Source: a virus. Taken from it: a DNA stretch of 14,794 nucleotides. The notes under the pieces were generated by a model. The model was not told the origin of the DNA and did no database searches. It saw only the letters and a program-made list of their open reading frames with translations. A program made the translations under genes and the position numbers. Below are positions 90 to 12,331 of the stretch, in pieces (the first letter of the stretch is position 1; each line of letters begins with the position of its first letter). Where the stretch lies: the IMG/VR virus record IMGVR_UViG_3300031521_002449. One strand, given 5' to 3'.

Positions 90-277
90 ATAATGATATA
101 ATGAATGATAATGTATATAAAAATTCCTATGGTATAGAACCAATATTTGACGGCAATCAGTTTTATACAAGAAAAATAATAATAACAAATGAAACTATTT
201 TAGATAAAATACCTATTAATGAAATAGAACAGTTTTTACGCAAGAAAAAATTAGAAAAATTAAAATATATAAAATGA
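86..277 (+). CDS. hypothetical protein, 63 aa
   Basis: ORF with ATGA overlaps at both ends (upstream partial gene and downstream NT5C gene). No recognisable motif. Confidence 0.4.
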   Translation: MNNDIMNDNVYKNSYGIEPIFDGNQFYTRKIIITNETILDKIPINEIEQFLRKKKLEKLKYIK

Positions 278-747
278 AGGTATTACTTATTGATATGGAT
301 GGTGTTATAGTAGATTTAAGACAACATATAAACGAATTTTTTGAAAAATATCCATATTTATTTACTAAATATGAACATTGTCCAGATCATATACCTGGAA
401 TTTTTAGAAATCCTAAACCATATAAAGATGCAGTAGAATCAATAAACAAATTATATGAATCTGAAAAATATGATATGTATATTGCAACCGCTGCGCCTTG
501 GGGTAATCCTGATGCGGCAACAGATAAAAGATACTGGATTGAAACATATTTTGGTAATATGTTTCATAAAAGATTAATTTTAACACATAGAAAAGATATG
601 TTAAAAGGAGATATATTAATTGATGATAGAGAAAAAAATGGGGCTGGAGAATTTGAAGGTGAATTAATAAGATTTGGCTATAATCATATTACAGATAGTA
701 TGAATGAATACCAAGATTGGAATGCAGTTTTAAACCATTTATTATAA
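274..747 (+). CDS. 5'(3')-deoxyribonucleotidase, NT5C family (HAD superfamily)
   Basis: N-terminal HAD motif I LLIDMDGVIVDL. C-terminal block DKRYWIETYFGNMFHKRLILTHRKDMLKGDILIDDREKN matches the NT5C/dNT signature (RW..Q...F..RIILT.DK..V.GDLLIDDK). 157 aa is the typical length. Confidence 0.8.
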   Translation: MKVLLIDMDGVIVDLRQHINEFFEKYPYLFTKYEHCPDHIPGIFRNPKPYKDAVESINKLYESEKYDMYIATAAPWGNPDAATDKRYWIETYFGNMFHKRLILTHRKDMLKGDILIDDREKNGAGEFEGELIRFGYNHITDSMNEYQDWNAVLNHLL

Positions 748-1243: not shown

Positions 1244-1714
1244 TTAAATATTATATTTTTTTGAATCTTTTTTAATTTCTAACTCTTCCATCAATGAGCC
1301 TTTAATATAACTATAAACTCTAACCTTAAAATCAGGCGAAGTTTTAGTATTATTATAATTTGTAAATAACGTGTGCCATATATTTTCATTATCAATTTTT
1401 ACTAAAATATCAGAATCATGATATTTTGGATTTTCAAATTTAACATCTTTACATATACCAATAATGCTATGTTTTTTTTGATCGTGCGGATTTTCATTAG
1501 AAAAATCTAAGCTGTAACACCAAGTACATTGAAATGCTATTTGTTTGTTTATTATAATTTCTTTAGCCAGATCATAAAAATCAACGTTATAGTTTCTACA
1601 ATCTTCTTTTAAATTCTTTAAACTAAATGATTTATATGATTTATCTTTAATTTTAGAGAATTCATCTCTAATTGGTTGTTTTTGATGTATAAATAGTTCG
1701 TATAATTTTATCAT
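1244..1714 (-). CDS. tandem-family protein, 156 aa (N-term MIKLYELF, C-term KKYNI)
   Basis: ORF in the minus-strand array. ATGA overlap with the upstream member. Ends with the KYNI family tail. Confidence 0.55.
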   Translation of the reverse strand: MIKLYELFIHQKQPIRDEFSKIKDKSYKSFSLKNLKEDCRNYNVDFYDLAKEIIINKQIAFQCTWCYSLDFSNENPHDQKKHSIIGICKDVKFENPKYHDSDILVKIDNENIWHTLFTNYNNTKTSPDFKVRVYSYIKGSLMEELEIKKDSKKYNI

Positions 1715-2193
1715 ATATTGTATTTTTCAACTTTCTTTTTAAATTTTACTTCTTTATGTAATGGTTTTGTATCAGCATCGTAATCATAAATTGAAACTAT
1801 TGAATCACTATCTACTAAAAAAGATTTATCTGAAAGTGGAGTAAAATCTATATATTTTTCACCACTTAAAATTTGTATATTTGATAATGTAACATTAATA
1901 TAAAAATCATCTTTATAGTAAAGACAATCAACATCTTTCACCTTACCTTTTATTATTGGGTTATTTATAAGTTTATTTATATTTTTAAATATAATAGTTT
2001 TATTTATTAAAATTTCCTTGAAAAAATTTATAACATTTATATTATAAATACTCTCTAAAGTATAATCTTCATCAAATTCTTCACTATCAAGACTGACACC
2101 TAAATATTTAATAACATCATTAATGAAAAATTGATCTTTACCAAGCATATAATTATTTTCTACACCTTCAAATATTTTAAATTTTGTTATCAT
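1711..2193 (-). CDS. tandem-family protein, 160 aa (N-term MITKFKIFE, C-term EKYNI)
   Basis: ORF in the array with ATGA overlaps on both sides and the family tail. Confidence 0.55.
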   Translation of the reverse strand: MITKFKIFEGVENNYMLGKDQFFINDVIKYLGVSLDSEEFDEDYTLESIYNINVINFFKEILINKTIIFKNINKLINNPIIKGKVKDVDCLYYKDDFYINVTLSNIQILSGEKYIDFTPLSDKSFLVDSDSIVSIYDYDADTKPLHKEVKFKKKVEKYNI

Positions 2194-2417
2194 AGTTTTT
2201 TTATCGTATCTTTAATAGTATCATTTTTAACATATAATAAGTATTCACCTTTATTTGTTGTAAGGTTATAAATAGAATGACCTTCATTAATAGCGGTTAT
2301 AATTTCAAGATATTCATCTATTTCTTCTTTAGATAATTTATAACTTTTTGACAATTCTTTCAACGCCATTTCTTTTGTAATTTCTTCAGTTTTCAGAATT
2401 TCTGTTTTTTTCTTCAT
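2190..2417 (-). CDS. hypothetical protein, 75 aa, embedded in the array (no KYNI tail)
   Basis: ORF with ATGA overlap downstream and a 3-nt spacer upstream. K/E-rich, probably helical. Confidence 0.45.
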   Translation of the reverse strand: MKKKTEILKTEEITKEMALKELSKSYKLSKEEIDEYLEIITAINEGHSIYNLTTNKGEYLLYVKNDTIKDTIKKL

Positions 2418-2420
2418 ATA

Positions 2421-3152
2421 TTATATATTATATTTTATAAATTTCTTTCTAAGATTATATCTTTCAAATTTTTCTGGAAATTTTTCTTGTAATTCCTTAA
2501 TCTTTTTTATATCACCATTACTTGATAAATTAGATATAAAATCATCTCCTCTATCATCTTTAATACCCCAATCTGCATCTAATTCTATTAATTTATCAAC
2601 AATAGAAAAATTATCTTTTCTATGTTTCTCATTTGTAGCTTTCATTAAAGCTGTTCTTCCAAATGAATCTTGAATATCTAAGTTCGCGCCATATTTAACA
2701 AACAAGTTAATTATTTTAATTATTTGTGATGGTCTACCATTTGATGATAATATTGCAATCATCAATGGTGTTCTACTAGATTTATTTTGAACATTCGCAT
2801 TTGCGCCTTTCCTCAACAAACTTTCAATTTTTTTGATATTTAAACCATGAATTACATCAAACAATTTATTACTATCTACAGAATCATATATTGAAGATTC
2901 AGACAATTTTTTCTTAAAATTTTTATGAATTAAATATTTAACATATTTGTATATTTCTTTAGAATTTAGCAAATCAATACCATAATCATTATAAATATAA
3001 TGTATTATAAATTCTAGAACATGATCTTCAGTTAATGATTGATGTACATTAACAATATTTTTTATAGCCTTTCTATATAATATTGGAAATAGACTGGCTA
3101 TAAATTTTAGATTATTTGTTCCTTCTTTATATAATTCAAATTTGATTATCAT
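2421..3152 (-). CDS. ankyrin-repeat protein carrying the family termini (MIIKFELYKE ... KFIKYNI)
   Basis: Central ANK signatures: LLRKGANANVQNKSSRTPLMIA, LFVKYGANLDIQDSFGRTALMKA, LIELDADWGIKDDRGDDFIS (G-TPLH/ALM--A, GA-ID motifs). Embedded in the array with ATGA overlap. Confidence 0.7.
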   Translation of the reverse strand: MIIKFELYKEGTNNLKFIASLFPILYRKAIKNIVNVHQSLTEDHVLEFIIHYIYNDYGIDLLNSKEIYKYVKYLIHKNFKKKLSESSIYDSVDSNKLFDVIHGLNIKKIESLLRKGANANVQNKSSRTPLMIAILSSNGRPSQIIKIINLFVKYGANLDIQDSFGRTALMKATNEKHRKDNFSIVDKLIELDADWGIKDDRGDDFISNLSSNGDIKKIKELQEKFPEKFERYNLRKKFIKYNI

Positions 3153-3559
3153 ATGTTATATTTGTCTATTTCTATCTCAGTATTTATATTTTTTAATCTA
3201 TTTATCAATTCTATCATTTTTTCTTCTGATCCTATATACATATTACTAGTTGGGTATTCTTTTAATAAACCTATTTCATTTGCAATTTTTTTATATTTTT
3301 CTACTTTTATTTTTTCTGATGGTAATATACCGTCAGTAACATAAATAGAATATAACATTGTATTACCTGTATAATCAATATAATTTGATGTATAATATTG
3401 TTCTGTATCTGCCTTAAGATATTTAACTTTTTCTACTCCACAACTAATATTATTGTTTTTATCAGCAAAAACTTTATTTAATGAATATCTTAATTTATTA
3501 ACAAATTTTTTATTTTCTTCACTATATTGTAATGCATCATATGTTTTTATATATTTCAT
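3149..3559 (-). CDS. tandem-family protein, 136 aa (MKYIKTYD ... DKYNI)
   Basis: ORF with ATGA overlaps and both conserved termini. Confidence 0.6.
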   Translation of the reverse strand: MKYIKTYDALQYSEENKKFVNKLRYSLNKVFADKNNNISCGVEKVKYLKADTEQYYTSNYIDYTGNTMLYSIYVTDGILPSEKIKVEKYKKIANEIGLLKEYPTSNMYIGSEEKMIELINRLKNINTEIEIDKYNI

Positions 3560-4029
3560 ATGTTAAATTTGCTCTTAGTTTTATACATTTCTGAATCTAG
3601 ATCTAAATAAACTATAACTTCTTCATCTACATTATAATAGTCTTCTTCATTATCTATTTTTATACTTATATATTCAAATTGGAATATACTATCGTTTTTA
3701 CTATCCTCTGTAAAAGGACCTGATTCAAATGAAACATTAGTACATAATCCATAATGTGATCCAAAATCAGGATCATTAAAAGATATAACTTTATTTTCTA
3801 TTAAGTTTCTAACTAAAGTTATATATTCTGTTTCCATATCTGATACAATTTTATTATCATCAGGTATAGAATACCCACCTCTTGTTAATTTTTTATTTTC
3901 TCTTACTTTATTAGCATGATTTTCCATTTCAAAAATAAGTTGATGTAAATTAATATATAAATTTCCATCTTTTTCAATTATATTTTTCCATCTATAACCG
4001 TAGTCTTCAAATGTTTTTATATATTTCAT
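3556..4029 (-). CDS. tandem-family protein, 157 aa (MKYIKTFE ... SKFNI)
   Basis: ORF with ATGA overlaps and both conserved termini. Confidence 0.6.
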   Translation of the reverse strand: MKYIKTFEDYGYRWKNIIEKDGNLYINLHQLIFEMENHANKVRENKKLTRGGYSIPDDNKIVSDMETEYITLVRNLIENKVISFNDPDFGSHYGLCTNVSFESGPFTEDSKNDSIFQFEYISIKIDNEEDYYNVDEEVIVYLDLDSEMYKTKSKFNI

Positions 4030-4340
4030 ACGTTGTACTTTTTAATATTTTCTATTTGATCATCAAATTCTTCTTCATCCTCAATTAAGTTTCCTAAACC
4101 GTCATAAAGTTCATAACTATAATGATTTGCACCTTCACCAGTTTCATTAATATATTCTTCTATTCCATAATGAATACAACTATCTCTATCATCTGGCACT
4201 TTATAATAATTTTGATAATAGTTAGTATTTTCTATTCTTTTCATTGATACTTCAAAGCTACCATCAAAAGTAACCTTCAATATCTTATCAGCAGGATTAT
4301 ATGATCCTTCTAATGATTCATTGAATCTTTTAATTTTCAT
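4026..4340 (-). CDS. tandem-family protein, head of array 1, 104 aa (MKIKRFNES ... KKYNV)
   Basis: First gene downstream of the divergent intergenic region 4341-4425. Variant leader and tail. Confidence 0.55.
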   Translation of the reverse strand: MKIKRFNESLEGSYNPADKILKVTFDGSFEVSMKRIENTNYYQNYYKVPDDRDSCIHYGIEEYINETGEGANHYSYELYDGLGNLIEDEEEFDDQIENIKKYNV

Positions 4341-4961: not shown

Positions 4962-5159
4962 ATGAGTAAATTGAATGGAAAAATAAAATTTTTTTCCGAA
5001 AAAGGATTTGGTTTCATCAAGGAAAATGAAACAAATATGGAATATTTTGTTCACGTAAGTGGATTAATAGATACCGTATATGAAAATGATGAGGTTACTT
5101 TTGAGTTAATTGAAGGTAAAAAAGGTTTGAACGCTATAAATGTACAACTTGTAGATTAA
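4962..5159 (+). CDS. cold-shock domain protein (CspA family)
   Basis: GKIKFFSEKGFGFI (RNP1-like KGFGFI) and FVHVSG (RNP2-like), then VTFELIEGKKGLNAINV. This aligns closely to E. coli CspA (GIVKWFNADKGFGFI ... VFVHFSAI ... VSFTIESGAKGPAAGNV). 65 aa. Confidence 0.85.
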   Translation: MSKLNGKIKFFSEKGFGFIKENETNMEYFVHVSGLIDTVYENDEVTFELIEGKKGLNAINVQLVD

Positions 5160-5576: not shown

Positions 5577-5993
5577 TTATATTGATTCACTATATACAAA
5601 ATTTTTCAAAGGTAAGAACAAATTTTCTGGAAATTCATTATACTTGAAAAATTTCCATTCTTCACATTTATCTGGCTCAGCAATTTTTAGATTTTTAAGT
5701 TCTTTTTTTCCAATATTTTCTACTTCATATATAACTGTAATATAATGAGTTTCTTCATCAAACACAGCATTTGTAACTCCAGCAAGTTTAAGTTTATTAG
5801 TTGTTGTAGTTAAATTAGTTTCTTCTTTCAATTCTCTTATTGCACAGTCTTTCAATTCTTCGCCAAAATCAAGTTTTCCACCTGGTAATCCCCAAGTATG
5901 ATAACCTAAATTGATATTTTTTCTGTAGCCAAGTAAGATTTCACCTTTTTCATTTCTTACTATTACTGCTACTCCTACTCTCGGATTGTTCAT
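5577..5993 (-). CDS. NUDIX hydrolase
   Basis: Nudix box GKLDFGEELKDCAIRELKEETNL fits Gx5Ex7REUxEExGU, with N in place of the last G. The preceding RVGVAVIVRNEKGEILLGYR is the typical beta-strand region. 138 aa. Confidence 0.75.
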   Translation of the reverse strand: MNNPRVGVAVIVRNEKGEILLGYRKNINLGYHTWGLPGGKLDFGEELKDCAIRELKEETNLTTTTNKLKLAGVTNAVFDEETHYITVIYEVENIGKKELKNLKIAEPDKCEEWKFFKYNEFPENLFLPLKNFVYSESI

Positions 5994-6665: not shown

Positions 6666-6896
6666 TTAATTTTTTACAGATTCGTTAATATATGGTCTCA
6701 ATTTTGTTAATATAATACATTCTAATGCAGACTCTTTAGAAGTCCATTCAGCTTTATAATCATTCCAATATACTATAACATCAATAAATTCACCGCAAGA
6801 ACTACCATGATTAGATTCTATAAAAGTTTCAACTTTTGATTTTAAAACAACATCCTTAGTAAGTTCTTTAATCAAGTCTAATAATTCTTGTTTCAT
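6666..6896 (-). CDS. hypothetical protein, 76 aa (MKQELLDLIKELTKD...)
   Basis: The ORF track extends to a TTG at 6983. The first ATG in frame is at 6896-6894 and gives a compact 76-aa product. Confidence 0.4.
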   Translation of the reverse strand: MKQELLDLIKELTKDVVLKSKVETFIESNHGSSCGEFIDVIVYWNDYKAEWTSKESALECIILTKLRPYINESVKN

Positions 6897-7113
6897 ATCT
6901 AATAGTTTTAATTTGATAGTACAAAGATACAAAAAATAATTCAAATAAACAAGAAGGGAACAACATTTTTTAATATATAACAACGTATCGCACTCAAAAC
7001 GCGAACAAATTCTTTTTGGTTTATGTTAGTTCAGAGTTAATAAAATGACTTTGAAATTGTTGAAAGGCAATAAATGAATTAGCAAAACAAAAACAAAAAA
7101 ATAAAAAAGAAAA

Positions 7114-8082
7114 ATGACACACAACAGAATGTTGGACCGTGCTCCCTCGGTCGTGATTACTAGTAATCGTAATGAATTAAAGGTTTATCAAGGAAACAAT
7201 GTTTACCTAAACAATGGTGATAACTTTGAACTAAGGTTTTTTAACCCATTAAATGAAAAATTAGGAGTTGAAATTAATTTCAACGGAATGAAAAAAGGTA
7301 ACGGCTATTTAGTCTTAAATCCAGGACAAGATATAGTCTTAGACCGTTTTTTAGATGAACAACGAAAAATGTTATTTGAAACTTATACTGTAGATGGTAA
7401 CAACGAAGAAGCAGTTAAAGCAATTGAAAAAAATGGTATAATTACATTTAATTTCTTCAAAGAATATGGTTCTTATATGCCTAAAGATGTAAATATAAAT
7501 TATGCTTTTCCACCTAAGCCTCGTAAATATGATGCTAATAGATATTCTAAAAGTATGAATTATTATAATTCAGGCACATCAGGGAATTCTGGAATATCAG
7601 GTAATTCTGGAACATCTGGCAGTTGTGGAACTGGTGGAAATGGTGGATTTTCAACAAATAATTTTAATTATACTGCACCTGGAGTTTTTTTCTCTGAAAA
7701 GGATTTTTCAACGTCTATATCAAATACTATGTTTTCTGCGGATTTATCAAGAGGTATATCATCAACTATCACAAATACTGTACATATCGATAAAGATTAT
7801 TGGTTTCCGTCATCAAGCAGTAACATTTCAGCAGTATTACCAACAATAGATAATTTAGAAACAGGAAGAATAGAAATGGGAGAAATATCAAAACAACAAT
7901 TAAAAACTATTAATGCTCAATTTTGTTCAACACCTATTCATACTGTAACATATCAACTATTACCTATTTCAGCAATGAATCGTACTATTAGTGAAGTTCG
8001 TCAATATTGTCCAGAATGTGGATATCGTTTAAGAAAAGAAACTTGGCATTTTTGTCCAAAATGTGGTGAAGATTTAAAATAA
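7114..8082 (+). CDS. protein with beta-rich N-domain, Gly/Ser-rich tandem-repeat linker, S/T/N-rich region and C-terminal zinc ribbon (CPECGYRLRKETWHFCPKCG)
   Basis: 322-aa ORF. C-terminal CxxC-x13-CxxC. Internal 18-nt periodic repeat encoding GTSGNS/GISGNS/GTSGSC/GTGGNG. Followed 14 nt later by the vWA gene. Confidence 0.55.
   Translation: MTHNRMLDRAPSVVITSNRNELKVYQGNNVYLNNGDNFELRFFNPLNEKLGVEINFNGMKKGNGYLVLNPGQDIVLDRFLDEQRKMLFETYTVDGNNEEAVKAIEKNGIITFNFFKEYGSYMPKDVNINYAFPPKPRKYDANRYSKSMNYYNSGTSGNSGISGNSGTSGSCGTGGNGGFSTNNFNYTAPGVFFSEKDFSTSISNTMFSADLSRGISSTITNTVHIDKDYWFPSSSSNISAVLPTIDNLETGRIEMGEISKQQLKTINAQFCSTPIHTVTYQLLPISAMNRTISEVRQYCPECGYRLRKETWHFCPKCGEDLK
7572..7646 (+). repeat. 4 copies of an 18-nt tandem repeat (GGNANNTCNGGNAATTCT-like) inside the CDS
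   Basis: ggcacatcagggaattct / ggaatatcaggtaattct / ggaacatctggcagttgt / ggaactggtggaaatggt, read directly from the sequence. Confidence 0.7.
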
Positions 8083-8096
8083 AAATAATAGAAAAT

Positions 8097-8705
8097 ATGA
8101 AAAAGATTGATATAATATGTATATTAGATATGTCTGGTTCTATGAGTTCTATTATAGCCAAGGCAAGAGAAGGATTTAATCAATTCTTAAAAGAACAACA
8201 ACAAAGTGAAAATAATATCAAATTCTCATTATTATTTTTTGATACAGATTTTTATATGCCATATAAAAATATTAATATTAAAAAAGTAAAACCAGTGAAT
8301 GAAGATACTTATTATTCTCGTGGTGGTACGGCATTACTAGACGCTATTGGGTTTTCAATAGAGTCATATTTAGATGATTTAGCATTAATACCGAAAAATA
8401 AAAGGGCAAATAAAACACTATTTGTTATTCTTACTGATGGAGAAGAAAATAGTTCAAAAATTTATCATAGAGACTTAATAAAATTAATGGTAGAACAAAT
8501 GCAGGAAGAATTTAATTTTGGATTTATTTACCTAGGAGCAAATCAGGATTCTTGCTTTCAAGCAGAATCTATGGGAATGAATAGAAGTAATGCTTTTAAC
8601 TATGATGCCACTAACGATGGAATAACAGTCGCATATTCAAAAATATCAGAAGCGGCAACATACTACGCTAGTAATAACGTAAAAGATAATTTATTCCAGC
8701 AATAA
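8097..8705 (+). CDS. von Willebrand factor type A (vWA) domain protein with an intact MIDAS
   Basis: DMSGSM (DxSxS), GGTALLDAI (MIDAS Thr), ILTDGEEN (MIDAS Asp), in the canonical order and spacing. 202 aa. Confidence 0.8.
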   Translation: MKKIDIICILDMSGSMSSIIAKAREGFNQFLKEQQQSENNIKFSLLFFDTDFYMPYKNINIKKVKPVNEDTYYSRGGTALLDAIGFSIESYLDDLALIPKNKRANKTLFVILTDGEENSSKIYHRDLIKLMVEQMQEEFNFGFIYLGANQDSCFQAESMGMNRSNAFNYDATNDGITVAYSKISEAATYYASNNVKDNLFQQ

Positions 8706-8735
8706 TTAAAAAGAGTGTTGATACAAAATAACCTG

Positions 8736-8766
8736 AAAAGGTGAATCAAACTGATTCACCTTTTTT
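8736..8766 (+). terminator. intrinsic terminator AAAAGGTGAATC-aaact-GATTCACCTTTTTT
   Basis: Stem of 8-12 bp plus a T6 run, 30 nt after the vWA stop. Confidence 0.6.
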
Positions 8767-8977
8767 ACATAAATGGAAAAAAGTGACATTTTTTATTTTA
8801 TATATAGAATAAAAAAGAATTTGCTAATATCTAAAGATATTAAAATAAATATAACAAATAGAAATATAAAATTTTATATAAAAATACCAGATATATCACC
8901 AGAAGAAATATGCAAATTAGAAAATTTATGTTTTACAAAAAGAACAATAAATTCAAAAAAACAAGAAAGTTGTGATT

Positions 8978-9130
8978 ATGAAAGAAAAGAAAAAAATTAG
9001 TATTCATTTTACTATAGATAAAGTAATAAACGAATCCTTTGATAGATTAATTAAAAATGAATGTTTAAATAAATCATTATTAATACAGACATTAATTGAG
9101 AAATATATAAAAGAAAAGGAAGTCAATTGA
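8978..9130 (+). CDS. putative ribbon-helix-helix (CopG/Arc-like) DNA-binding protein, 50 aa
   Basis: Hand-translated: MKEKKKISIHFTIDKVINESFDRLIKNECLNKSLLIQTLIEKYIKEKEVN. The pattern of an N-terminal beta-strand (KISIHFTID) followed by two amphipathic helices is characteristic of RHH regulators. Flanked by terminators. Confidence 0.4.
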   Translation: MKEKKKISIHFTIDKVINESFDRLIKNECLNKSLLIQTLIEKYIKEKEVN

Positions 9131-9140
9131 CTTCCTTTTT
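9114..9140. terminator. bidirectional terminator: perfect 18-bp palindrome GGAAGTCAATTGACTTCC with an A-run upstream and a T-run downstream
   Basis: Located between the RHH gene stop (9130, inside the stem) and the end of minus-strand array 2 (9140). Confidence 0.55.
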
Positions 9141-9493
9141 CATAAATTATATTTTTTTGTCATATCAAACAAATATGCATATTTTTTAATTTTATATTCT
9201 GGAACTTTAACATCTATTTGAGATGACCCCATGTGTAATTTTTCATTTTTAACTTTTAACTTTAAACTTTTAAGAAAATTGTAAAATCTATCATAAATCT
9301 CTTCTTCTGTAAAATCAAAAAAATAAAATGTAAAATATTCTTTATATAACCCGTTATTATCGTCAAATAGACATTCACTAAATCCTTCTTCTTTAGTAAT
9401 AGGAATTATATCCTCAAAATATAAGCAAACAGAAGTTAGAATATCTTCTCTTTCTTTTGATATGATATAATTCTCAAATATTTTAATTTTCAT
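9140..9493 (-). CDS. tandem-family protein, last of array 2, 117 aa (MKIKIFENY ... KKYNL)
   Basis: ORF with ATGA overlap to the upstream member. Tail is a KYNL variant. Confidence 0.55.
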   Translation of the reverse strand: MKIKIFENYIISKEREDILTSVCLYFEDIIPITKEEGFSECLFDDNNGLYKEYFTFYFFDFTEEEIYDRFYNFLKSLKLKVKNEKLHMGSSQIDVKVPEYKIKKYAYLFDMTKKYNL

Positions 9494-9807
9494 ATATTAT
9501 ATTTGATTGATAATTTTTTTGCTTCGTACTCTTCAATTTCTTTTGGTGTTAATTTTCTCTCAATTATATTTTTATTATCGTATAAAACATTGAGTTTATC
9601 ATCTGCAATTATTTCAAACTTTAGATTAAAGAAATCATCTTCTGTATTATTACCAACTATTTGAGCAAAATTAAATATTTTATATCCATTAGGCAATTGG
9701 GGGGTAGGCATAAACCAACTTTTTATGTTAGAATCTTCAAGTTTAACATAATCTCCTATTTGGAAATTTTCTATCCAACGATCTTCAAATTGTTTTATAT
9801 ATTTCAT
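9490..9807 (-). CDS. tandem-family protein, 105 aa (MKYIKQFE ... IKYNI)
   Basis: ATGA overlaps and both conserved termini. Confidence 0.6.
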   Translation of the reverse strand: MKYIKQFEDRWIENFQIGDYVKLEDSNIKSWFMPTPQLPNGYKIFNFAQIVGNNTEDDFFNLKFEIIADDKLNVLYDNKNIIERKLTPKEIEEYEAKKLSIKYNI

Positions 9808-10148
9808 ATGTTAAATTTTTTTGATTCTGACATTAATTTTGCGACATTTATACAATCTTGTAAATTATCCGATTCATATAATATTTCTTTTTCTTTATAT
9901 GGTCTATCTGTTACAAAATGTTTGAAGGACTGTTCAAGTGTCAATTTTTTATTTAAACCATCATATATTGCATGTCTTTTAGATCTGAAAAATATTCTCT
10001 CTTCAACATTTTTTCTATTCGGTTCTCTATATATATTTAACACTTCAAACACAACGTATATATCAAAAAAATGTGGCTGGTCTTGCCATATAACATATTT
10101 TTTAAGTTTTGGCAATTCTATTGATTCAAATTTTTTAATATACTTCAT
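9804..10148 (-). CDS. tandem-family protein, 114 aa (MKYIKKFE ... KKFNI)
   Basis: ATGA overlaps and both conserved termini. Confidence 0.6.
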   Translation of the reverse strand: MKYIKKFESIELPKLKKYVIWQDQPHFFDIYVVFEVLNIYREPNRKNVEERIFFRSKRHAIYDGLNKKLTLEQSFKHFVTDRPYKEKEILYESDNLQDCINVAKLMSESKKFNI

Positions 10149-10417
10149 ATGTTATATTTGTTTGCAATATATTCTTCTTCTGGTACTAATTTTAATTTTT
10201 TACCAGATACCCAATATTTATTATTTTTATTTTCAATTTGATATGGTTGATAATCATCTTCAGTATTTATAGCAACTATTTGCATAATAATAGTTGCTAA
10301 TGGATTATTCATTTTAACATGATCACCAATTTTATATCTATATGCTAGTAATAATTCAGAGTTTTCTTCTTTATTAATAGCATCAATATATATTTCATAT
10401 ATTTTTATATGTTTCAT
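10145..10417 (-). CDS. tandem-family protein, 90 aa (MKHIKIYE ... NKYNI)
   Basis: ATGA overlaps and both conserved termini. Confidence 0.6.
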   Translation of the reverse strand: MKHIKIYEIYIDAINKEENSELLLAYRYKIGDHVKMNNPLATIIMQIVAINTEDDYQPYQIENKNNKYWVSGKKLKLVPEEEYIANKYNI

Positions 10418-10725
10418 ATGTTAAATTTTAATGCATTATTTTTTATATTTTGCAAATCTATTTCTTCTGGTGTAGCAAATCTAAAATACATTTTATAACT
10501 ACTTATTTCGTTATTACTATCTGTTATATAACCATTTTTTGGACTATTAGGATTAATATCATATCTAATTTTAATCATAGTTTTAGTAGATCCGACCACT
10601 TCCCCTACATTAGTAGTTACAAAATTTTTTGCAGCGGGAAGAACTGTTGGATAACTTGGTAATGCAATTACAAAGTCTTCTGATTCAAAGTCTTGAAATA
10701 TTTCATATGTTTTTATATATTTCAT
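10414..10725 (-). CDS. tandem-family protein, 103 aa (MKYIKTYE ... LKFNI)
   Basis: ATGA overlaps and both conserved termini. Confidence 0.6.
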   Translation of the reverse strand: MKYIKTYEIFQDFESEDFVIALPSYPTVLPAAKNFVTTNVGEVVGSTKTMIKIRYDINPNSPKNGYITDSNNEISSYKMYFRFATPEEIDLQNIKNNALKFNI

Positions 10726-11024
10726 ATGTTAAATTTATTTGTATCATCAAGTATTGATAACATAGAAATACAATCTTTCAATCTATGTGCTTCATATACC
10801 ACATTTATATTATTATAATTAAGATAAAATGTATTATTCATAGTACCATAATTATGTTTATCATTATATTTGAAATAATATTTTACCTCAGCACGAAGTT
10901 TGCCAGTTTCATATAATATGTTTATAATTTTTATAATATAATATTTATATCTATCAATAAAATCATCAACTTCTCCGTTGGTTACAATAAGAAATTTTGA
11001 TTCATATGTTTTTATATATTTCAT
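10722..11024 (-). CDS. tandem-family protein, 100 aa (MKYIKTYE ... NKFNI)
   Basis: ATGA overlaps and both conserved termini. Confidence 0.6.
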   Translation of the reverse strand: MKYIKTYESKFLIVTNGEVDDFIDRYKYYIIKIINILYETGKLRAEVKYYFKYNDKHNYGTMNNTFYLNYNNINVVYEAHRLKDCISMLSILDDTNKFNI

Positions 11025-12331
11025 ATATTAAATTTTGCAGCATTTGCTTTATATATGAATTGCTCATAATTTTCAAAATCATCCTCTGATTTTTCTTCTT
11101 TTAATCTATTTTCAAATTCAGGTGACACAAACCATTGTAATATTTCACCTTTATAAAATCTTGCAAGATTAAATAAATCTAATTTTTTGTTATCATAATC
11201 TATACGAACATCATAATCATAATTAAATTCTGCTTTATCAAAATTTTCCTTAAATGCTTCTAAATTATCTACTTCTATTAATTTTGGAAAAATATCATCT
11301 GGTGATATCATATAGTCATTTATAACATTATTAACTTCTTTTTTTAAATCTTCGAAATCTCCCATAAATTTATATTTATCTTCTTCAAATTCATATGATA
11401 AATCACTGGCTTCATAAATATTTTCTAAAAATTCTTTTATTGTTTTAACATTCATATTATGTTTTTTCATATATTCTATAATTGATTCATAATCAAATAC
11501 TAATTCAATATCAAAATCTCCTGTGTGTTCAAAACTCAACTCAAATGGTAACGATTTTATTAATGCTCTTGCAGCTTTATCAATAGCACGTTCATTTTCC
11601 ATTGCTATTTCCATTTTAAAATCATCCAATTCACTTTTTAATCCTAAATAATTAAATAATTTATGAATTTCATTTTCTTCACCTGGATCTATTTCATAAT
11701 TAAATAATTTAGAAAATTCTTTAATTTTATTTAATGTCTCTTCAGATAAATAAGAATAGATATAATCTAATTCATCATCATCAACATAATAATCTTGGCT
11801 ATTTCCATAAGAGCCAAAACTTAAAAGATGATTTATAATACCCTCTTCTAATTCCATTAAATCTTCTAATTTTCTAGACTTCATAAAAATGATTAGTTTA
11901 TCTTTATCATACTCTGGTTCATATCTATAATAACTACTAGATTTTGTTATGTATTCTTTTTCATCTAAACCTATATAATTAACAATATCTTCTGGTTTGA
12001 AATCTGGGGATTCTAATATTTGAATTAAATTTTGTTTATCATCATCTTCATCATCTGAATAACTTTCTTTAACAGGATTATTTCTCAAATATTCCGCTTG
12101 TTTTAATGTTTTAAAGCTTATTGATTTAAGTTTCTGTATTTTAGAATTTTTATCATTATTTAACTTTGTGCGTTTTGCTGGATCTTTTTCTCTACCTAAT
12201 CTTTTTCTATCACTTTTAATACCTTTTTGTAAATAAACAGCATTCTTTAATAAACCTTTTTTAACTTTGAAAGGTTTTGCTGAATTTATTGTTATTGGTT
12301 TAAAATTTTCGTATGTTTTGATATATTTCAT
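11021..12331 (-). CDS. large acidic tandem-family protein, head of array 2, 436 aa (MKYIKTYE ... AKFNI)
   Basis: Long ORF. It carries the family leader even though no gene lies upstream of it. D/E-rich interior (SYSDDEDDDKQ...). Confidence 0.65.
   Translation of the reverse strand: MKYIKTYENFKPITINSAKPFKVKKGLLKNAVYLQKGIKSDRKRLGREKDPAKRTKLNNDKNSKIQKLKSISFKTLKQAEYLRNNPVKESYSDDEDDDKQNLIQILESPDFKPEDIVNYIGLDEKEYITKSSSYYRYEPEYDKDKLIIFMKSRKLEDLMELEEGIINHLLSFGSYGNSQDYYVDDDELDYIYSYLSEETLNKIKEFSKLFNYEIDPGEENEIHKLFNYLGLKSELDDFKMEIAMENERAIDKAARALIKSLPFELSFEHTGDFDIELVFDYESIIEYMKKHNMNVKTIKEFLENIYEASDLSYEFEEDKYKFMGDFEDLKKEVNNVINDYMISPDDIFPKLIEVDNLEAFKENFDKAEFNYDYDVRIDYDNKKLDLFNLARFYKGEILQWFVSPEFENRLKEEKSEDDFENYEQFIYKANAAKFNI

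Follow-up and report, generated by a model that had tools for sequence, protein, structure and literature searches.

A conserved three-way-junction leader RNA and the zinc-ribbon and vWA genes that it precedes in Lak/Mahaphage-type huge phages

Two small genes lie side by side on the plus strand of a 14,794-nucleotide (nt) stretch of viral DNA (IMG/VR record IMGVR_UViG_3300031521_002449; the whole stretch is referred to below as the window). The first encodes a protein of 322 amino acids (aa) that ends in a zinc ribbon (7114..8082), and the second, 14 nt downstream, a stand-alone von Willebrand factor A (vWA) protein of 202 aa (8097..8705). Do these genes belong together, and if so, what controls them? 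A preliminary description of the locus, made from its sequence, had taken the two for a co-transcribed module closed by a terminator, and we confirmed both open reading frames (ORFs) and their spacing. The most informative feature of the locus, however, is the leader RNA that precedes the first gene: a compact three-way junction that recurs upstream of zinc-ribbon genes and, in a phage where the two genes are separated, upstream of each of them. We read the locus as a dedicated operon of two genes under the control of the leader, belonging to huge phages of the Lak/Mahaphage type. Its proteins would form a complex and its leader would serve as operator; we hold this reading with slightly less than even confidence.

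Upstream of the zinc-ribbon gene, the conservation of the non-coding DNA exceeds that of the protein. The minimum free energy (MFE) structure of the single sequence 7021-7087 is exactly the three-way junction (-13.8 kcal/mol, z -3.1), and RNAalifold, given an unfitted MAFFT alignment of 12 lineages, recovered the helices P1 and P3 with compensatory changes; P2, the second hairpin, was evident by eye. Among 51 distinct leader sequences, 94% of the cells pair, as compared with 67% after column shuffling and at most 46% with slid partners, and double-sided changes occur in 20 of the 22 leader pairs (289 cells); these counts stem from model-fitted alignments, which is a point against our reading, and the unfitted RNAalifold and MFE evidence agrees with them. 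The nucleotides conserved at the junctions are UUnGA and RAA. Rfam 15 returned only three noise-level matches across positions 6850-7250 (E 2-6, far below gathering scores). Two other identities for the element were considered and rejected: a hammerhead or other ribozyme, as the junctions have neither a CUGAnGA nor a GAA core and nothing in Rfam matches, and a general promoter or untranslated-region element, as the leader occurs in one copy per locus and in two per 735-kb genome.

Of the 51 distinct copies, nearly all have 13-31 nt between the end of the leader and the start codon, and one has 9 nt. In two lineages (L004, 9740-10001; L041, 4688-5001) the leader is ~190 nt away from the zinc-ribbon start codon; in these, a small ORF apparently sits between leader and zinc-ribbon gene and would make a three-gene unit. 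Some lineages, not including that of the window, carry AGGAGG or AAGGA in the spacer between leader and start codon. Several have a sigma70-like promoter, TTGACA-N17-TATAT(T/A)TATA, 15-35 nt upstream. A U-rich stretch on the 5' side of the leader (UCUUUUUGGUUUAUGUU) can also pair with the A-rich region before the start codon, replacing P1 (6990-7140); this alternative fold of the longer transcript is not significant (z only -0.95), and a switch is possible.

To which genes is the leader attached? A covariance model of the leader (R1, refined to R2), searched over 96 loci (957 kb), gave 71 matches. Of these, 68 immediately precede a zinc-ribbon gene and one precedes a vWA gene; the remaining two are weak and lie elsewhere. 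With the filters off, weaker copies appeared before the zinc-ribbon gene in Lak-A1 (E 4e-5), LR756508, LR745206 and Lak-B4 (E 0.06). Across ~2.2 Mb of phage DNA, every strong match (at least 47 bits) stood before a zinc-ribbon gene, except one that stood before a vWA gene. Scans with an exact leader pattern gave 11 real matches out of 15 in IMG/VR, and 12 real ones among the 80 loci listed of at least 120 matching stretches in metagenomes, the others being due to chance.

The most telling case is the complete 735-kb phage genome LR756501, in which the zinc-ribbon and vWA genes are unlinked, 107 kb apart. A search of both strands with the leader covariance model found exactly two significant copies (67.1 and 58.9 bits; the next best match scored 18.9 bits); each stands 31 nt ahead of a start codon, in one case that of the vWA gene and in the other that of the zinc-ribbon gene. 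Substitutions in P1 and P2 that set the two copies apart are compensatory. With many hundreds of genes in a genome so large, it is very unlikely that the copies came to these positions by chance. Both leaders precede exactly these genes, and the zinc-ribbon and vWA genes therefore constitute a dedicated regulon, which supports their functional coupling independently of adjacency: adjacent in one sub-lineage, they have a leader copy each when separated.

Where the two genes are neighbours, their order is conserved as well. Across 14 diverged lineages, in which the zinc-ribbon protein is 32-68% identical to that of the window, zinc-ribbon followed by vWA is the only gene order common to all, and the flanking genes differ. 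The gap between the two genes is 0-33 nt in these relatives, with the exception of LR756500 (67 nt) and of L016, where the gene for an HNH homing endonuclease has been inserted between them and the order is kept despite the insertion; such a gene is also present beyond the vWA gene in L044 and directly after it in L066. The same layout was found in all six further complete metagenomic cases (6/6). Overall, 19 of 82 distinct zinc-ribbon loci carry a vWA gene directly downstream, 55 do not and eight are too short to be informative, absence being judged from whatever flanking sequence was available (at most ~5 kb at the IMG/VR loci). The preliminary description was to be refuted if homologs of the two genes never co-occurred elsewhere; they do occur together, in 14 lineages and with a shared leader when unlinked, but the pairing is not obligate.

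Several observations weigh against the dedicated operon that we propose. Since 55 of the 74 informative zinc-ribbon loci have no vWA gene in the available flank and the 15 Lak genomes contain no vWA match at E <= 1e-5, the zinc-ribbon protein must work without this vWA protein in most phages. No vWA gene adjoins the zinc-ribbon gene in Lak-A1, LR756504 or LR756508, and the vWA family is solitary in more than 200 cultured phages (of Streptomyces, Microbacterium and Pseudomonas). Moreover, the shared-leader rule is not universal, because LR756504, in which the vWA gene is unlinked, has no detectable leader before that gene, even with the filters off. All of these (the loci and Lak genomes with a zinc-ribbon gene and no vWA gene nearby, the solitary vWA genes of cultured phages, and the unlinked, leaderless one of LR756504) would be accounted for by conserved synteny without physical partnership, the zinc-ribbon protein being a hallmark accessory of these huge phages that has a function of its own and the vWA gene an independent accessory member of the same early transcription unit. 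This explanation appears improbable to us, given that the pair is the sole gene order shared across diverged flanks, that it survives the insertion in L016 while in L044 and L066 related endonuclease genes sit beyond the vWA gene, and that the sole two leaders in a 735-kb genome precede exactly these two genes.

A last point against the operator is that a riboswitch for a small molecule, or a trans-acting factor other than the two proteins, would explain just as well why two genes have the same leader. Were the leader a riboswitch, a small molecule or metal ion bound to the three-way junction would switch the translation of both genes, and both proteins would be regulated effectors and not regulators. 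The compact three-way junction, with its conserved junction nucleotides and strong covariation, is in keeping with this, and so is the presence of one element before two different, unlinked genes in LR756501, as in riboswitch regulons; both products are metal-binding by domain type (zinc ribbon and MIDAS, the adhesion site that depends on a metal ion), and the weak pairing between U-rich 5' flank and A-rich region (z only -0.95) could provide an expression platform. On the other hand, a binding pocket would have to be made from about eight conserved unpaired nucleotides, the loops of P2 and P3 being variable, and the leader contains neither a terminator nor a clear helix opposing the ribosome-binding site. 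The element also has no Rfam match and is tied to a single protein family over ~2.2 Mb, which is typical of protein-binding autoregulatory leaders. A riboswitch is the chief alternative to the operator, but we consider it unlikely.

Under the operator reading, the leader would set the level of both proteins from its place just before the zinc-ribbon gene's ribosome-loading region. The likeliest mechanism is an autogenous translational repression, in which the zinc-ribbon protein would bind its own leader and block ribosome loading. In the lineages that carry the TTGACA-N17-TATAT promoter, host RNA polymerase would probably transcribe the operon early. That the binder is the zinc-ribbon protein, alone or perhaps jointly with the vWA protein, is a tentative assignment, about as probable as the operon reading or somewhat less so; we base it on the strict co-occurrence of RNA and protein family, on invariant arginine and aromatic residues in the ribbon, which are possible RNA contacts, and on the short conserved junctions. 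Such a scheme would be akin to the gene 32 pseudoknot and gene 43 hairpin of phage T4, to RegA and to the leaders of ribosomal-protein genes, where likewise a structured RNA precedes an unstructured A/U-rich ribosome-loading region and RNA and protein family strictly co-occur, the protein binding being presumed in our case. It differs from these in that the three-way junction and the protein family are unrelated to them and in that a paralogous copy of the leader stands before a second gene, in trans.

The two genes and their leader form one transcription unit, which starts upstream of 7021 and ends with the terminator at 8735-8765 (Table 1). As the preliminary description had it, the unit is co-transcribed and terminator-closed: the spacer between the genes is unstructured, a strong hairpin follows the second gene, and the same layout is found in 14 lineages. 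The hairpin (-16.7 kcal/mol, z -6.45), which was also flagged by a terminator scan, has the properties expected of a Rho-independent terminator, namely a stable stem-loop, a U tract and a conserved position: in at least 11 of the 14 lineages, an A-run, stem and T-run occur within ~45 nt after the vWA gene, in sequences unrelated to one another. Because an A-run precedes the stem and T-runs lie inside and after it, the predicted terminator could be active in both directions. Just beyond it, a 75-aa ORF (8773-9000, plus strand) is all that is left of the gene for an HNH-type homing endonuclease, namely its C-terminal part (ENLCFTKRTINSKK); in relatives, where the gene is complete, it encodes 276-385 aa. 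It is followed by a 52-aa protein (8972-9130, plus strand) that by eye resembles a ribbon-helix-helix DNA binder, without a Pfam match, and that has a counterpart with 77% identity at the corresponding place in L066. Where the genes switch to the minus strand, there is a second terminator-like hairpin, again bidirectional (9113-9140; -15.5 kcal/mol, z -5.0).

Table 1. Positions of the leader RNA, the two genes with their parts, and surrounding accessory genes in the window.
Feature	Position	Strand	Remarks
NT5C-type 5'-nucleotidase	274-747		accessory gene around the pair
Ankyrin-repeat protein	2421-3152		accessory gene around the pair
Cold-shock-domain protein	4962-5159		accessory gene around the pair
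NUDIX hydrolase	5577-5993		accessory gene around the pair
Conserved 5' leader RNA	7021..7087	+	three-way junction, 64 nt
Leader helix P1	7024-7033 with 7075-7084		
Leader hairpin P2	7034-7039 with 7046-7051		
Leader hairpin P3	7056-7061 with 7066-7071		GAAA loop
Leader junctions			J2/3 = UGAA; J3/1 = AAA
Spacer from leader to start codon	7088..7113	+	A-rich, unstructured, no Shine-Dalgarno
Zinc-ribbon gene	7114..8082	+	322 aa
Immunoglobulin (Ig)-like beta-sandwich	aa 8-118 (nt 7135-7467)	+	
Hypervariable linker	aa 119-246	+	G-x-y, then S/T/N-rich
Conserved beta-hairpin	aa 247-292 (nt 7852-7989)	+	'LETGRIExGxxSxQ'
C4 zinc ribbon	aa 293-322 (nt 7990-8079)	+	
Intergenic spacer	8083..8096	+	14 nt, folds at 0 kcal/mol
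Stand-alone vWA gene	8097..8705	+	202 aa, MIDAS intact, TDGxENxS motif invariant
Intrinsic-terminator-like hairpin	8735..8765	+	14-base-pair stem, 3-nt loop

What do the two proteins look like? The zinc-ribbon protein belongs to no Pfam or PHROG family, its sole Pfam match being the C-terminal ribbon (PF13240), at a marginal 25.4 bits against a cut-off of 25; the same profile is matched by 36 of 38 distant members of the family. The cysteines C299, C302, C314 and C317 are invariant in both zinc-ribbon alignments, and the ribbon residues R296, Y298, Y304, R305, R307 and W311 in the alignment of 38 homologs. That alignment also shows a conserved N-terminal domain (aa ~8-118) and a linker that is hypervariable in both length and sequence, which in the window protein consists of nine G-x-y triplets, without proline, and then a stretch rich in S, T and N. 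AlphaFold2 modelled the N-terminal domain as a beta-sandwich and aa 247-284 as a beta-hairpin (predicted local distance difference test, pLDDT, 85-93), with the linker disordered and a predicted template modelling score of 0.52. The family defined by the N-terminal domain comprises 1163 clusters at 50% identity with a constant architecture, and a C-terminal CxxC..CxxC was present in 122 of the 149 members inspected.

The vWA protein consists of one domain only. It matches PF00092 over aa 5-173 (33.2 bits, cut-off 23.8), and its AlphaFold2 model (pLDDT 93.6) has the Rossmann-like alpha/beta fold of a vWA domain. The MIDAS is intact, as had been proposed, its five residues (D11-x-S13-x-S15, T78 and D114) being invariant in 27 sequences that include cultured phages; MIDAS domains mediate protein capture. 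Nor is the protein a fragment of a larger virion protein: it belongs to phrog_7371 (E 7e-44), a complete family of ~200 aa. Members from cultured phages, such as gp97 of Streptomyces phage Bmoc, ORF413 of Xanthomonas phage XacN1 and gp61 of Pseudomonas phage Pyxpy02, share with it the family, the length of ~200 aa, the MIDAS and the TDGxENxS motif, and differ in having neither a zinc-ribbon partner nor the leader RNA.

Some distant homologs of the vWA protein have neighbours of their own. The one in XacN1 lies directly after a poly(ADP-ribose) polymerase gene (L008, 2687-4618), and that in the Heliusvirales gut phage PV036457 lies between a macro-domain protein and an HD phosphohydrolase (L114, 1923-4802), in a region that adjoins an antitoxin-like gene and hsdM; the vWA family may be connected to ADP-ribosylation. 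Separately, two genes after the pair in L044 (7054-8568), a 504-aa protein combines a metallopeptidase (HExxH) with a second vWA domain. A metallopeptidase-vWA fusion paired with MoxR has been described for group 2.2 jumbo phages (PMC7824862), and the L044 protein may be of this MoxR co-chaperone type.

If the two proteins act as a complex, they would do so in the cytoplasm, by eye neither having a signal peptide or transmembrane segment. The contribution of the zinc-ribbon protein would be its Ig-like beta-sandwich together with a ribbon carried on a long flexible tether, and that of the vWA protein a metal-dependent capture site, the MIDAS, that would take hold of an acidic ligand, be it the partner or a target; we think that the two probably form such a complex. 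A precedent is found in Sulfolobus, where ArnA (a zinc ribbon, a linker and an FHA beta-sandwich) and ArnB (a vWA domain, a beta-sandwich and a helical bundle) are encoded by adjacent genes (PMC12852372). The ArnA ribbon sits docked on ArnB, an arrangement in which the authors see a likeness to the core of Sec23/24 (PMC12852372; PDB 8s05). By analogy, the phage pair resembles ArnA/ArnB and the Sec23/24 core in domain content: the same three types of module are present, partitioned differently over two chains, and, as for ArnA/ArnB, the genes are adjacent. In contrast to the archaeal proteins, the phage zinc-ribbon protein has no FHA domain, and the single-domain phage vWA protein has neither the split beta-sandwich of ArnB nor its C-terminal helical bundle (ArnB_C). 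The TFIIH subunits p44/Ssl1 and p34/Tfb4, in which a vWA domain is followed by zinc fingers, are more remote, with an identity of only 11-12%; they are single eukaryotic chains without a beta-sandwich partner and belong to unrelated complexes. No functional MIDAS is required of the vWA domains of p44 and p34.

The preliminary description had likened the pair to prokaryotic conflict systems of the TerY-like, vWA-MoxR and vWA-ternary kinds and suggested a role in counter-defence. This analogy did not hold up. PADLOC-DB 2.0 contained no family matching either protein at E <= 0.01, and the partner genes that define these systems were absent: we found no PP2C phosphatase, Ser/Thr kinase or TerD/TerC/TelA in a Pfam scan of 18 window ORFs or in the gene tables of L001 and L004, and neither the scanned ORFs of the window nor the precomputed gene tables for L001-L006 showed an AAA+ ATPase or MoxR. 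What the phage protein shares with TerY/YegL and with the vWA of vWA-MoxR systems is a small cytoplasmic vWA domain with an intact MIDAS, and several of its homologs are labelled 'YegL' or 'ChlD' by the Joint Genome Institute (JGI). Unlike those, it has no PP2C/kinase triad, Ter genes or MoxR AAA+ neighbour in the loci scanned, no TerF-like Pfam match, and a motif, TDGxENxS, of its own. A counter-defence module, with a MIDAS that seizes a host immune protein and with the zinc-ribbon protein as sensor or adaptor, would nevertheless agree with the protein-capturing habit of MIDAS domains and with the patchy distribution of the pair as an accessory among small accessory genes, and the polymerase, macro-domain/HD hydrolase, antitoxin and HsdM neighbours of the distant vWA homologs in XacN1 and PV036457 are weak hints in its favour. 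Besides the missing PADLOC match, it is at odds with the finding that neither the scanned window ORFs nor related loci provide a partner that is an NTPase, kinase, phosphatase or nuclease, and with the zinc-ribbon protein itself, which is conserved in all 22 matching huge-phage genomes, hypervariable in its linker only, and thus more core-like than expected of an arms race. We judge counter-defence to be distinctly improbable.

Still less probable, to a degree that makes it remote, is a part in the virion or its assembly, with the zinc-ribbon protein as a collagen-like fibre or decoration and the vWA protein as an adhesin or an assembly co-chaperone of the MoxR-vWA type. The Ig-like fold and the G-x-y triplets bring such a part to mind, as does the metallopeptidase-vWA protein two genes downstream in L044; the window protein has a weak match to Collagen (PF01391; E 0.065, 13.5 bits against a cut-off of 27.2), and some homologs carry PF01391. 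Yet the triplets number only nine, are devoid of proline, and are absent or replaced in many homologs; no structural gene or MoxR ATPase lies nearby; several lineages have a sigma70-like promoter; and a C-terminal zinc ribbon and a leader resembling a translational operator are atypical for fibre proteins. The adhesion role that had been suggested is likewise unlikely in view of the zinc-ribbon partner, the non-structural setting, that promoter and the N-termini, neither of which by eye is like a signal peptide.

From what kind of virus does the window come? A tblastn search of a phage collection with the zinc-ribbon protein matched 22 records and no others, consisting of 15 Prevotella Lak megaphage genomes and seven 'uncultured phage' genomes of 460-735 kb (LR756500-504, LR756508 and LR745206), and metagenomic relatives lie on contigs of up to 711 kb. 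The ORF at 12971..>14794 (plus strand), which runs off the end of the window, encodes a protein homologous to major vault protein (MVP; MVP_shoulder 2e-24, Vault_3 4e-10) with 54-57% identity to genes of LR756500/501/503; phage MVPs were first reported in bioRxiv 10.1101/2023.11.10.566534. Because its zinc-ribbon and MVP homologs occur in huge phages and its relatives on large contigs, we conclude that the window is part of the genome of a huge phage of the Lak/Mahaphage type, akin to LR756500/501 and the Lak phages. Its GC content is 22-30%, and its small genes are densely packed, many with 4-nt overlaps. A giant eukaryotic virus, which the low GC content, ankyrin repeats and MVP gene had suggested, is ruled out by these overlaps, by the intrinsic terminators and by the confinement of homologs to Lak and other huge phages. 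We also rejected a link of the pair to MVP or a vault-like ribonucleoprotein, as MVP was found only in LR756500/501/503, at least 100 kb from the pair there, and was undetected in Lak genomes. Two short contigs of metagenome-assembled genomes in GTDB were matched, one assigned to Muribaculaceae and one to Izemoplasmatales; both are probably mis-binned and offer a weak hint of the host at most, so that no host was assigned from them.

Genes near the zinc-ribbon gene at loci without a vWA gene include those for a metallophosphatase, a cREC protein (cREC_REC), an AAA_33 kinase and a Pyr_excise-like protein. A conserved neighbour of these zinc-ribbon genes was sought and dismissed, the commonest one being present in 19 of 65 loci only and not diagnostic. 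The neighbourhood around the pair and around the vWA-less loci has a suggestive flavour of RNA or nucleotide repair. Elsewhere in the window, paralog arrays at 1244-4340 and 9140-12331 (minus strand) contain at least 12 small genes, nine of them found via a DNA pattern. Each paralog begins with ATGAAATATATAAAAACATATGAA (MKYIKTYE) and the preceding gene ends in ...K(Y/F)NI with an ATGA overlap, a junction sequence of ~30 nt thereby being repeated at every gene boundary of the arrays, which look like a cassette-like, lineage-specific expansion. The stop codons of 30 window genes are TGA in 16, TAA in 14 and TAG in none. Translation tables 11 and 15, in the latter of which TAG encodes Gln, were used in the Lak genome publication, as cited in PMC7824862; the avoidance of TAG in the window may reflect the same code change as in Lak, in part of the genome.

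We found no description of the pair, of the zinc-ribbon family or of the RNA in the literature, Rfam, Pfam, PHROGs, PADLOC, a survey of jumbo phages (PMC7824862) or the Lak taxonomy paper (PMC11165621). The zinc-ribbon family and the leader RNA are new. The kinds to which the findings belong are familiar ones: operons headed by cis-regulatory leaders, and vWA proteins that have a zinc-finger protein as partner. To our knowledge, phages of the Lak and Mahaphage type have the largest phage genomes known and almost no conserved genes with an assigned role. The locus adds to them a new conserved gene family, limited within the phage collection to 22 huge-phage genomes, and a new compact and strongly covarying RNA motif, which ties the zinc-ribbon protein to phrog_7371, a widespread family of phage vWA proteins. 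Comprising a 64-nt RNA and two small proteins, the system could be studied in vitro without phage culture. More speculatively, and with a probability that we place well below that of the operon, the leader would represent a new class of cis-regulatory RNA of the largest phages, be it a zinc-ribbon operator or a riboswitch, in control of a split zinc-finger/beta-sandwich/vWA core. If so, the pair would be a split phage counterpart of an assembly or regulatory platform present in archaea (ArnAB) and eukaryotes (Sec23/24, TFIIH p44), and an ancient ArnAB/Sec23-like module would extend to the viruses of bacteria.

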